Shown: positions 10,667 to 21,061 of the stretch, in pieces
How positions within the stretch are numbered: the stretch's first letter is position 1
How the letters are laid out: every line of letters begins with the position of its first letter
IMG/VR virus record: IMGVR_UViG_2778261502_000009
Direction: 5' to 3' (one strand)
DNA length: 25,811 bases
Source: a virus
Lineage: Duplodnaviria; Heunggongvirae; Uroviricota; Caudoviricetes
Notes under the pieces: generated by a model
Database searches by the model: none
What the model saw: only the letters and a program-made list of their open reading frames with translations
Told to the model about the DNA's origin: nothing
Made by a program: the position numbers and the translations under genes

Positions 10667-10837
10667 ATGTCAGAACGTAAAGACTCAAAATCACTCCGTA
10701 ATTATCTCGTTAAATGTTCCTGCCCAAACTGCACCCAAGAGTCAGAACACAGTTTTTCAAGAGTACAAAAAGGTGCCCTTTTGATCTGCCCTCATTGCAA
10801 CAAAGTATTCCAGACAAATCTTAAAGCTGTAGCCTGA
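10667..10837 (+). CDS. Small zinc-ribbon protein (56 aa, possibly YnfU-like)
   Basis: AGGAAAA lies 5 nt upstream of ATG 10667. Translation MSERKDSKSLRNYLVKCSCPNCTQESEHSFSRVQKGALLICPHCNKVFQTNLKAVA has CxCPNC ... CPHC. Below the ORF-track size cutoff. Confidence 0.55.
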   Translation: MSERKDSKSLRNYLVKCSCPNCTQESEHSFSRVQKGALLICPHCNKVFQTNLKAVA

Positions 10838-10918: not shown

Positions 10919-11200
10919 TGAGATTGTGGTGCTTTTTGTGGGAGTCATCCACTTACGCACTTTGTTTTGCCATGCCAGCAGTTAGCTTCTGCTGTAAAAC
11001 TATTCATGCAGCAAACCTGCACTTCACCACAATGGTTAGCATACTTTTCCTGATTAAGATTTTGCCAAATATGCTGGCCATTGTTTCATGTATTGGACCT
11101 CCTTAATTTTTATTAAAGAAATCCAATATTCACTACTCTGTCCGTATCTCTACTCAGGCATCAGCCTTCTTCGTTATCGTATACAGACGAGCGATGAATT

Positions 11201-11416
11201 TTAATCAGTAATGATGACATTTGCTGCTGCAGGACCTTTAGCACCACTCTCTATAGAGAAGGTAACCTTTTGACCTTCAAATAAGGTTCGATAATTATCA
11301 TTCTGAATCGCAGAAAAATGCACAAACACATCTTTACTACCATCAACAGGAGAAATAAAGCCGAAACCTTTATCAGCGTTAAACCATTTTACTAAACCAG
11401 TCATTTTATTTGACAT
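11201..11416 (-). CDS. cspB: Cold-shock protein (CspA family, CspB-like)
   Basis: 71 aa, [71 protein letters not shown]. Confidence 0.85.
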
Positions 11417-11716
11417 TCTACATTCCTTAACTTGAGCCTTTCGGCATAAATGGTTTGCATAACAGAAACGACTTCGTACTTAATTGGAGAGACTCAAAGA
11501 AGGAATAAGTGAATAACACCTGAAATGAGAACTGCTTTAGTAAACTACTTCGTATATCGTCTGTTCTTCAAACCGACGCAATCATTAACGCATAGTTGAA
11601 CATATGAAGCAATGTTTATTTTAGACATCCAGCCATCTTCAACCCCATCAAAAAACTATAGCTTTCTTCAGGAACGTGTGTATAGTGCGCCAAGTTATCA
11701 GTATTAAGGAATTTTT

Positions 11717-11929
11717 TTGTCCCGTAAAATGACAGGAATTGTCAAAACCTTTGACGGCAAAAGCGGCAAGGGTCTTATCACCCCATCCGATGGTCGTATC
11801 GATGTCCAGCTTCATGTTTCAGCGCTCAATCTCCGCGATGCAGAAGAAATTACCACCGGATTACGCGTGGAATTTTGCCGGATAAATGGTCTGCGTGGCC
11901 CTTCAGCTGCCAATGTTTACCTTTCATGA
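11717..11929 (+). CDS. cspF: Cold-shock-like protein (CspF/CspH type), apparent TTG start
   Basis: [38 protein letters not shown]...; the codon at 11717 is TTG, preceded by AAGGAA at a 6-nt spacing. I cannot distinguish cspF from cspH from memory. Confidence 0.7.
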
Positions 11930-11983
11930 GCTATATTAAAGCTTTAATTTCAGGCCCCATCGGATCACACATGGAGAGTTTTT

Positions 11984-12073
11984 ATGAATAACCCCGTCTG
12001 TCTTGATGACTGGTTGATTGGCTTTAAAAGCTTATGCTGTACTTTGGCCGTAATAGCTCTGCTAATAATATAA
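11984..12073 (+). CDS. Candidate small hydrophobic peptide (29 aa)
   Basis: GGAGAG lies 6-7 nt upstream of ATG 11984. Translation [29 protein letters not shown], followed about 150 nt later by a strong terminator. Not in the ORF track (under 60 aa). Confidence 0.35.
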
Positions 12074-12221
12074 TAAGCAGACTCATTGTGTTTAGGGACA
12101 TTGTACTGGAAGAAAACATTTTAAACATCAGGCAAATAACCAAGTCACCAGCTAAATAATAAGTTAACAGACATGAGTCCCGGGATGAGATTCAACATTA
12201 CCATTGCCCCATTTAAAGCAC

Positions 12222-12256
12222 AAAACCCGCTCATCAGCGGGTTTTCTACTTTTTCT
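12222..12256. terminator. Bidirectional rho-independent terminator (candidate tR' after Q on the minus strand; also terminates the cspF side)
   Basis: CCCGC-TCATCA-GCGGG with TTTTCTACTTTTTCTT on the plus strand and TTTTGTGCTTT on the minus strand. Confidence 0.6.
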
Positions 12257-12350
12257 TAACGTCGGGTATACAAAGCCCATCGTTGAAAAAATTTTATCCA
12301 TATTTTTTGAAAAATGCAAACATCATGTCGCCATCTTCAGCAAAAAACAT

Positions 12351-13103
12351 TTATCTCGTCACCTTCCTCAATTGCGCTTCCGCGTATGCTTCTTCCTGCC
12401 AGCACTTTGTTACCAGTTTACCAATGACGTCCGCATACCCCTTATACCACTGATAATCGGTCAGGTCTGGTACCAGCTTCTGGACATGACGTCGTGCCAG
12501 CGTGGTCGGTAAACGACTAAACCGGTTTCCATTACAACGCCCACAAATCTTATATACCGGTACGCCATGAAACCGGGTTCTTTTTTCATCCAGAACAATC
12601 CCTTTACCCTTACACCCTCTGCACGCTGTGCTGGCTTCGCCCTTACCATGGCAATGCTGACATAGTTCCTTCACCCATTCTTCCTTGATTACAGATTCCC
12701 CGCGTCTGTAGTGTTTCACCACTTCGCGCAATACATTATAAAATCCCGTACCTGAACAATGCTCACAGCGAGCCTTACTTGCCGCAGACCTGGAGTAATC
12801 AGCAAAGGCAAAACTCACGAGGTAAGGAATAATCTGTAACCGGATTTCTTCACTCAATTTGTTCAATGTCGGGTTATCCAGTGCCATCGCGTAATTTAGC
12901 AGGCCTTCAATCGCAAACTGAGGGTCCTGAACACCAACTTTTGCCAGAAATAAGGCCAACCCAAGTGGTGCTTTCGACTGCACCATCCCCTGCGCTGCCA
13001 TTACATCCGTAATTGTTAAACAACCGGTGCCTGTCGCTGGAGCGTCATCGCTCAATTTTGGAGATTTTGGGGAGTAATATTTTGGTAAGGCTTCAAGGTT
13101 CAT
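12351..13103 (-). CDS. Late-gene antiterminator Q
   Basis: ORF 12351..13133. GGAG lies 8 nt upstream of ATG 13103 (MNLEALPKYY...). Multiple Cys/His clusters (CEHCSGTG, CQHCHGKG, CRGCKGKG, CGRCNG) as in Q-family zinc-binding antiterminators. Confidence 0.75.
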   Translation of the reverse strand: MNLEALPKYYSPKSPKLSDDAPATGTGCLTITDVMAAQGMVQSKAPLGLALFLAKVGVQDPQFAIEGLLNYAMALDNPTLNKLSEEIRLQIIPYLVSFAFADYSRSAASKARCEHCSGTGFYNVLREVVKHYRRGESVIKEEWVKELCQHCHGKGEASTACRGCKGKGIVLDEKRTRFHGVPVYKICGRCNGNRFSRLPTTLARRHVQKLVPDLTDYQWYKGYADVIGKLVTKCWQEEAYAEAQLRKVTR

Positions 13104-14980: not shown

Positions 14981-15136
14981 TTACTCCTCAGGTTCGTAAG
15001 CTGTGAAGACAGCGACCTCCGTCTGGCCGGTTCGGATTCGTACCTCGCAGAGGTCTTTCCTCGTTACCAGTGCCGTCACTATGACGGTTAAACAGATGAC
15101 GATCAGGGCGATTAACATCGCCTTTTGCTGCTTCAT
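14981..15136 (-). CDS. hokD: Hok-family type I toxin (HokD/RelF-like)
   Basis: MKQQKAMLIALIVICLTVIVTALVTRKDLCEVRIRTGQTEVAVFTAYEPEE, 51 aa, from ATG 15136. The track ORF extends in frame upstream to 15193 (MLDTCRLASYVPKGKEKQS-). Confidence 0.85.
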   Translation of the reverse strand: MKQQKAMLIALIVICLTVIVTALVTRKDLCEVRIRTGQTEVAVFTAYEPEE

Positions 15137-15408
15137 AGACTGCTTCTCCTTGCCTTTCGGCACGTAAGAGGCTAACCTACATGTGTCTAGCATGAAATTG
15201 GCCTCAGATTAATGTTAAGCGTCTTGCAGGACGCGTAATGTTAACTGGGGCTTTTCTCTATCTGCCTTTGGTGTTCATGCCCGAGGCAGATAGCCTCAAG
15301 CACCCGCAGCCATTCTACTTAACTACCTTTACCTCGCCAATATGAAATCAGTCAGAAAGACGATCCATAAGAACAATAGCAAGATTTCTTAATGGAGATG
15401 GATGTAAG

Positions 15409-21003: not shown

Positions 21004-21061
21004 TTTCTGGTGACGTTTGGCGGTATCAGTTTTACTCCGTGACTGCTCTGCCGCCGTTTTT
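21004..21061 (+). ncRNA. dicF: DicF small RNA (ftsZ-targeting), ending in an intrinsic terminator
   Basis: tttctggtgacgtttggcggtatcagttttactccgtgactgctctgccgccgttttt matches the DicF sequence as I remember it. GGCGG...CCGCC stem followed by a T-run. Located between the ydfB/C-like gene and dicB. Confidence 0.65.

Follow-up and report, generated by a model that had tools for sequence, protein, structure and literature searches.

ynfS, a 29-codon gene behind cspF in a Qin-type prophage, and its diverged homologues in Citrobacter-type prophages

The locus and its published record

Between cspF and an intrinsic terminator, the window, by which we mean the whole 25,811-nucleotide stretch of viral DNA that was analysed, contains a short open reading frame that faces the Q antiterminator gene on the opposite strand (Table 1). 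This frame had been singled out in an earlier sequence-only reading as an unannotated gene, with a strong Shine-Dalgarno sequence (GGAGAG), for a Cys-containing peptide with a hydrophobic C-terminus, reminiscent of a small membrane peptide or a type I toxin. The listing of open reading frames and a direct read of the sequence both agree with that description as regards the frame, its coordinates and the GGAGAG; the gene does lie between cspF and the terminator hairpin, and the peptide does contain Cys, does end in a hydrophobic stretch and is preceded by a strong ribosome-binding site. Its size would say little by itself: as many as 66 open reading frames of at least 20 aa overlap the 3.3 kb around the gene, so that a length of 29 codons is uninformative on its own. 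This one stands out from chance frames by being identical to a validated K-12 gene, by a Pfam match and by frame-specific conservation in diverged prophages.

Table 1. Features around ynfS, with positions counted from the first nucleotide of the window
Feature	Position	Strand	Description and basis
Candidate -10 element TATAGT of a cspF-ynfS promoter	11681..11686	+	Picked by eye; low confidence
cspF	11717..11929	+	Same-strand gene upstream of ynfS; ORF listing and RefSeq annotation
cspF-ynfS spacer	11930..11983	+	54 nt; terminator-like site absent in the scan
Shine-Dalgarno sequence GGAGAG of ynfS	11973..11978	+	Direct read; 5 nt (TTTTT) before the ATG at 11984
ynfS coding sequence	11984..12073	+	ATG start, 29 codons and stop; ORF listing
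Bidirectional intrinsic terminator	12222..12257	both	10-bp GC-rich hairpin at 12222-12245, U-tracts on both strands
Candidate pR'-like late promoter, downstream of Q	12291..12320	-	TTTGCA-18-TAAAAT, 9/12; consensus match only
Q antiterminator gene (ydfT/quuQ)	12351..13103	-	Convergent with ynfS; ORF listing and RefSeq annotation of the collinear K-12 locus and other loci

The open reading frame is ynfS, an already named gene of the Qin prophage that encodes a 29-residue protein. Namely, its product has exactly the sequence of K-12 YnfS (b4750, YP_009518791.1, 'protein YnfS' in NC_000913.3), and it matches the Pfam family PF23697 'YnfS' over residues 1-29 of 29, scoring 80.9 bits where the cut-off is 27 (E = 4.7e-23). 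What is more, the window is collinear with positions 1640500-1643600 of MG1655, with 11 differences in 3101 nt and none of them within 11121-12346, and is therefore a Qin-type prophage of a non-K-12 E. coli. The two loci share the 29-aa sequence, the DNA, the ribosome site and the neighbours cspB, cspF, ydfT/quuQ and ydfU; nothing in the gene differs, and the difference lies in the strain. The earlier description of the gene as unannotated did not survive this comparison, as it stands as ynfS/b4750 in NC_000913.3 and the same CDS is annotated in other RefSeq E. coli genomes, mostly as 'hypothetical protein'.

For K-12, synthesis of the peptide is documented. VanOrsdel 2018, in which short open reading frames were SPA-tagged on the chromosome and followed by immunoblot, lists ynfS in its Table 1 between cspF and ydfT at 1642122-1642211 with 29 aa, which is the same peptide, and reports that YnfS was detected (PMC6001520); it was also positive in tetracycline ribosome profiling of K-12 (PMC6001520). 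Weaver et al. found strong start peaks for ynfS with both retapamulin and Onc112, and saw the protein by immunoblot, again in K-12 (bioRxiv 10.1101/511675). The tagged protein accumulates in growing as well as in stationary K-12 cells, harm not being reported (PMC6001520; bioRxiv 10.1101/511675), and YnfS is still classed as uncharacterised (PMC11551758). In other words, the feature was already known, being named, annotated, represented in Pfam and experimentally detected in K-12, and the ribosome-profiling check that had been proposed for it comes out in favour of translation, with published profiling and tagged protein on its side. Because the ribosome site and the open reading frame are identical, we consider the evidence transferred from K-12 to make a strong case that YnfS would be synthesised in the window's strain as well.

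Our literature search returned no report on the function or localisation of YnfS, on its co-transcription with cspF or on toxicity upon overexpression, and outside the two small-protein screens ynfS appears in gene lists only. Searches of NCBIfam, PADLOC and PDB sequences gave no YnfS match, and a search of PHROGs gave only a match at an E-value of 0.12. What is new here are the Citrobacter-type homologues linked to cspF, the purifying selection between clades and the apparently neutral drift of the gene in the cryptic prophages of E. coli.

The proposed cspF-ynfS transcription unit and its surroundings

A scan for terminators found none between cspF and ynfS. The first one is the hairpin at the end of 148 nt of untranslated sequence downstream of ynfS, with the convergent Q gene beyond it. 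On the plus strand, the terminator folds with -15.1 kcal/mol (z = -4.98), while on the minus strand the leader and the hairpin together reach -31.9 kcal/mol (z = -4.13). The candidate late promoter, which would be read from 12320 to 12291, occupies the short interval that follows Q and precedes this hairpin; in lambda, the late promoter pR' and the terminator tR' are placed likewise relative to Q. The hairpin probably ends the cspF-ynfS transcript and doubles as the tR' of the late operon. At the other end of the unit, the candidate -10 element TATAGT ends 31 nt before the start of cspF both in the window and in L134, a locus of the diverged clade B described below; it was missed by the promoter scan because its -35 region is poor.

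We infer that cspF and ynfS form a bicistronic accessory operon, convergent with the late operon and overrun by antisense transcription once Q antiterminates. In the mechanism that we propose, ynfS would be the second cistron of a cspF-ynfS moron operon. On one side this operon would be flanked by Q together with the late promoter and terminator, on the other by the lysis cassette, and its transcription would run towards Q and stop at the bidirectional terminator. Given this placement and direction, the operon would not depend on late transcription for its expression, which might take place in lysogens, for example, and antisense read-through would oppose it as soon as Q fires. A role of the frame as a leader peptide or attenuator was considered as well and rejected, as no regulated gene follows it on the same strand, where there are only the 148 nt and the terminator before the convergent Q gene.

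Across the family, nearly every member is directly preceded by a cspF-like gene, be it in E. coli, Citrobacter or metagenome loci. The convergent gene downstream varies: it is a Q gene of 250 aa in the E. coli clade, a Q gene of 137-149 aa in the Citrobacter clades, and an unrelated gene in a few loci. ynfS is linked to cspF, and not to Q or to the lysis genes. Several individual loci show the pair in altered form. In E. coli DG341-1 (L007 1288-1644), cspF is a pseudogene with an internal stop (Q31*) and ynfS is intact, and in two other strains (L009 and L010) deletions take the 3' end of cspF plus a part or all of ynfS. A contig from an ENA metagenome (P0041) encodes an 87-aa protein in which a deletion has fused CspF residues 1-58 in frame to full-length YnfS, so that it matches both the CSD and the YnfS families of Pfam; being a singleton, this fusion is probably a product of decay.

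A number of other elements in the window and its relatives may be recorded here. Matches to the cspA thermoregulator (RF01766) at 11185-11577 (-) and 8289-8674 (-), both on the strand of the late operon, span the long 5' leaders and the coding regions of the prophage genes cspB and cspI. The sok RNA of hokD/sok (15134-15305, -) and the DicF sRNA (21005-21056, +) are both expected in a Qin prophage, and a search of the window for tRNAs found none. Another recently named small protein, YnfU ('putative zinc-binding protein'), is encoded by a Cys-rich open reading frame of 56 aa at 10667-10837 (+); with cspB on one side and the holin gene on the other, it runs antisense to the late operon, and in this orientation resembles cspF-ynfS. 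In Kluyvera, a gene of the YnfU family lies within a chromosomal csp cluster. Finally, in the phages PhiR63_1 (L002, about 2900-4560) and HannyBb (L004), Q is set apart from the terminator/pR'-like region by an AT-rich insert of about 1.7 kb, in which neither a tRNA nor an Rfam match was found. A 94-aa open reading frame within the insert of PhiR63_1 (L002 3117-3401, +) ends in a hydrophobic C-terminal helix and is possibly another membrane-anchored moron.

Distribution of the family and selection on the reading frame

Family members were sought with degenerate DNA patterns in IMG/VR, genomes and metagenomes, and with tblastn. The scan of IMG/VR was anchored on the C-terminus of CspF, and its sampling is consequently not conditioned on ynfS itself. 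Among complete E. coli genomes, 1412 of 5426 contain the 181-nt ynfS region, nearly all at an identity of at least 99%, and about 74% are without the gene; sequenced phages that carry it are PhiR42_1, PhiR63_1, HannyBb and 2H10. A scan of species-representative genomes with the motif of the E. coli clade, which is uninformative on Citrobacter, gave three matches, all of them in E. coli/Shigella.

The scan anchored on CspF, in turn, uncovered diverged homologues directly 3' of cspF-like genes, namely MYPKIYLNDWLTGLKSSCCTLIVTILLFI, MYQKIYLNDWLTGLKSSCCTLIVTLLVFI and MNQTVYLSDWLTGLKSLCSTIAMTILLFI. The first of these was found in contigs from IMG/VR and metagenomes and the last in C. freundii assemblies. 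Alongside the E. coli clade (A), two Citrobacter-type clades (B and C) can be told apart. For clade C, the CspF protein pointed to Citrobacter freundii assemblies as the origin, and in this clade the second Cys of the CC pair of YnfS is a Ser; for the other diverged clade, the nearest sequenced phage is Citrobacter phage Chris1. The Citrobacter-type homologues score 32-37 bits and so pass the Pfam YnfS cut-off of 27. Like YnfS, they have 29 codons behind the ribosome site GGAGAGTTT, follow a cspF-like gene and converge with a Q gene, and they share with it a core, L-x-DWL-x-G-x-KS-x-C-x-T, that is common to the clades and is followed by a hydrophobic tail. They differ from it in an amino-acid identity of about 50-60%, in the type of Q and in their other neighbours. 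The length is kept exactly: all 153 family frames from E. coli genomes, phages and IMG/VR have 29 codons, as do 13 of the 14 metagenome members, which all belong to clade B and add no new clades. Clades A, B and C all retain the site GGAGAGTTT. Otherwise the spacer, whose length is 54 nt in clade A as against 62-65 nt in the two Citrobacter-type clades, has diverged beyond recognition. The refuting outcome named in the sequence-only reading, a frame not conserved in homologous regions, is thus not what is seen, since frame, 29-codon length and ribosome site persist in Citrobacter-type prophages.

In these scans, the taxonomic range of the family is narrow, comprising only E. coli/Shigella and Citrobacter-type members. 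The cspF genes that were examined in Salmonella, E. fergusonii and Kluyvera (L180-L184) have no ynfS next to them. The cspF-like gene of Salmonella enterica (L180) sits in a prophage beside Ail/Lom, a gene with a ricin-lectin domain and dinI, and those of E. fergusonii (L181/L182) and Kluyvera (L183/L184) are chromosomal. As cspF-like genes without ynfS are thus found in quite different contexts, the comparison suggests that ynfS was acquired, or arose, after cspF had entered the Q-lysis interval of lambdoid phages.

Is it the peptide, then, that has been conserved? Between the clades, over 28 codons and three clades, pS is 0.5-0.9 and thus near saturation, pN is 0.19-0.29 and pN/pS is 0.32-0.41, with Fisher p values from 1e-6 to 8e-3, and this holds in the annotated frame only, which argues that the peptide has been under selection between clades. 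The annotated frame is also the only one that is open in all clades. Two other frames overlap it, one of 41 aa at 12034..12159 (+), which is a called gene in PhiR63_1, and an antisense one of 39 aa at 12024..12143 (-), and both have stops in the other clades. Invariant across the clades are M1, L7, D9, W10, L11, G13, K15, S16, C18, T20 and L26. These data bear directly on the idea that translation as such is what matters, with ribosomes stabilising the mRNA of cspF at its 3' end or modulating the collision with late transcription. The position of the frame would suit such a role: it closes the cspF unit on the 3' side, faces the late operon, and is followed by no further gene of the unit ahead of the terminator. 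However, a role purely in cis would constrain neither amino acids nor exact length, and we hold this explanation to be barely credible.

Within the E. coli clade, the picture is a different one. In 118 Qin-type loci, which were sampled through the cspF anchor without reference to ynfS, the gene has 13 polymorphic sites, of which 12 are nonsynonymous and a single one synonymous, whereas cspF in the same loci has 13 nonsynonymous and 20 synonymous ones (Fisher p = 0.002 against ynfS). The nonsynonymous changes include loss of the start codon (M1I, in L122) and a nonsense codon (K15*, in L150), along with N2D, N3K, P4S, D9G, L11M, I12T, S16I, A22T, V23L and I29M (IMG/VR loci L011-L177). At 0.144 variable sites per nt, ynfS is as variable as its non-coding flanks. 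Because this pattern does not differ significantly from neutrality, diversifying selection cannot be claimed, and the change in Qin-type ynfS would fit neutral drift in cryptic prophages that are decaying.

Taken by themselves, the E. coli data would be well accommodated by a chance frame without function, located 3' of cspF on its transcript and translated by virtue of a good ribosome site. The excess of nonsynonymous change, the lost start, the nonsense codon and the flank-like density of polymorphism all fit such a frame, as do the narrow range of the family and the lack of any function reported in the literature (PMC11551758). It fares worse between the clades, where synonymous change far exceeds nonsynonymous change in the annotated frame only, where the length is kept to the codon and where GGAGAGTTT is retained although the spacer around it has diverged. 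We therefore find a functionless frame unlikely. In particular, frame-specific purifying selection together with conservation in Citrobacter argues for a functional accessory protein of the phage rather than for translational noise.

The peptide, its possible membrane association and its role

Residues 1-9 of YnfS are polar, the conserved DWLxGxKS motif is assigned to residues 10-16 in our division of the peptide, and residues 17-29 are strongly hydrophobic up to the C-terminus. The overall GRAVY is 1.47, and that of the 13 C-terminal residues is 3.14; for residues 17-29, values run from 2.4 to 3.1. On a crude scale that ignores position, with values after Hessa et al. 2005, the summed insertion score of the 19 residues 11-29 is -1.0 kcal/mol for the window's allele, whereas the Citrobacter clades score +1.3 to +1.7. 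Spanning a bilayer takes about 18-20 residues; the hydrophobic run proceeds without interruption for only 13 (17-29), with K15 and S16 upstream of it. As these scores depend on the allele, association of YnfS with the membrane is plausible but not secure. The description of the product as a small membrane peptide may be kept as the most plausible reading, but what stands behind it is hydropathy, and the prediction is marginal. A bacterial lipoprotein was considered too and rejected: C18 is preceded by K-S-L and C19 by S-L-C, neither of which makes a lipobox ([LVI][ASTVI][GAS]C), and there is no N-terminal signal sequence.

Small proteins of this general kind are well known in E. coli. AcrZ, MgrB and MgtS are small inner-membrane proteins with a single helix that modulate larger membrane proteins. 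YnfS resembles them in size, in its single hydrophobic segment and in having been discovered by tagging and ribosome profiling; it differs from them in that there is no sequence similarity, and in that its segment reaches the C-terminus and is of marginal length. Type I toxins such as HokD, Ldr, Ibs and TisB are likewise short hydrophobic peptides, sometimes borne by prophages. YnfS has neither homology to them nor a cognate antisense RNA or translational occlusion, and it accumulates in ordinary cultures.

This last comparison concerns the other suggestion of the sequence-only reading, namely that YnfS might be a type I toxin, which would damage the membrane and be silenced by antisense RNA, either a dedicated sRNA or the late transcript reading through. 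A peptide of 29 aa with the GRAVY given above is certainly small and hydrophobic enough, hokD/sok is present in the same prophage, and the Q-antiterminated late transcript must run antisense through ynfS. There are also weak antisense promoter-like hexamers at the 3' end of the gene, in the window (12094 to 12065, -) and in L134 (7946-7974, +). These hexamers, however, match the consensus at 9/12 and are no commoner here than after shuffling of the sequence. Their place relative to the stop codon differs between the two loci, the C. freundii locus of clade C has none, and they are probably due to chance in AT-rich DNA. What is more, the ynfS locus matches no Rfam family, in a search that did find sok and DicF elsewhere in the window, and the terminator scan found no antisense terminator there. 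Nor is the ribosome site sequestered, the region around it folding no more stably than shuffled sequence (z = -0.02 and +0.32). Neither PADLOC nor Pfam gives a match to a toxin family, and the strong initiation peaks and the accumulation of the tagged protein in K-12, with no harm reported, are not what one would expect of a silenced toxin. The suggestion of a type I toxin is thus not upheld by these data, and we judge it very improbable.

Our preferred reading, to which we assign a probability of roughly 80%, is that ynfS is a gene of Qin-type prophages for a small, membrane-associated accessory (moron) peptide and the operon partner of cspF. A pN/pS of about 0.3, together with the conserved DWLxGxKSxCxT, argues that there is a function at the level of the peptide. 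YnfS would most likely reside in the inner membrane, held there by the hydrophobic segment at its C-terminus (from about residue 10/17 to 29), and the conserved juxtamembrane motif would probably act on a partner in the membrane. In the cryptic prophages of E. coli, by contrast with its history between clades, the gene would now be drifting almost neutrally.

One could go further and suppose that YnfS and CspF make up a mobile two-gene cassette, which travels among lambdoid phages with different types of Q, that DWLxGxKSxC docks the peptide on an inner-membrane protein of host or phage, and that the polymorphism in E. coli reflects an arms race and not decay. We regard this as a speculative extension that is probably wrong in this form. 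If it were true, YnfS might exclude the DNA of superinfecting phages or tune holin-dependent lysis.

Returning to the reading of ynfS as an accessory gene, the comparison made here means that YnfS is not an oddity of E. coli only, as a 29-codon gene linked to cspF is present in Citrobacter-type prophages too. Finally, since the inducible phages 2H10, PhiR42_1, PhiR63_1 and HannyBb carry ynfS, they offer a tractable system for this uncharacterised small protein.
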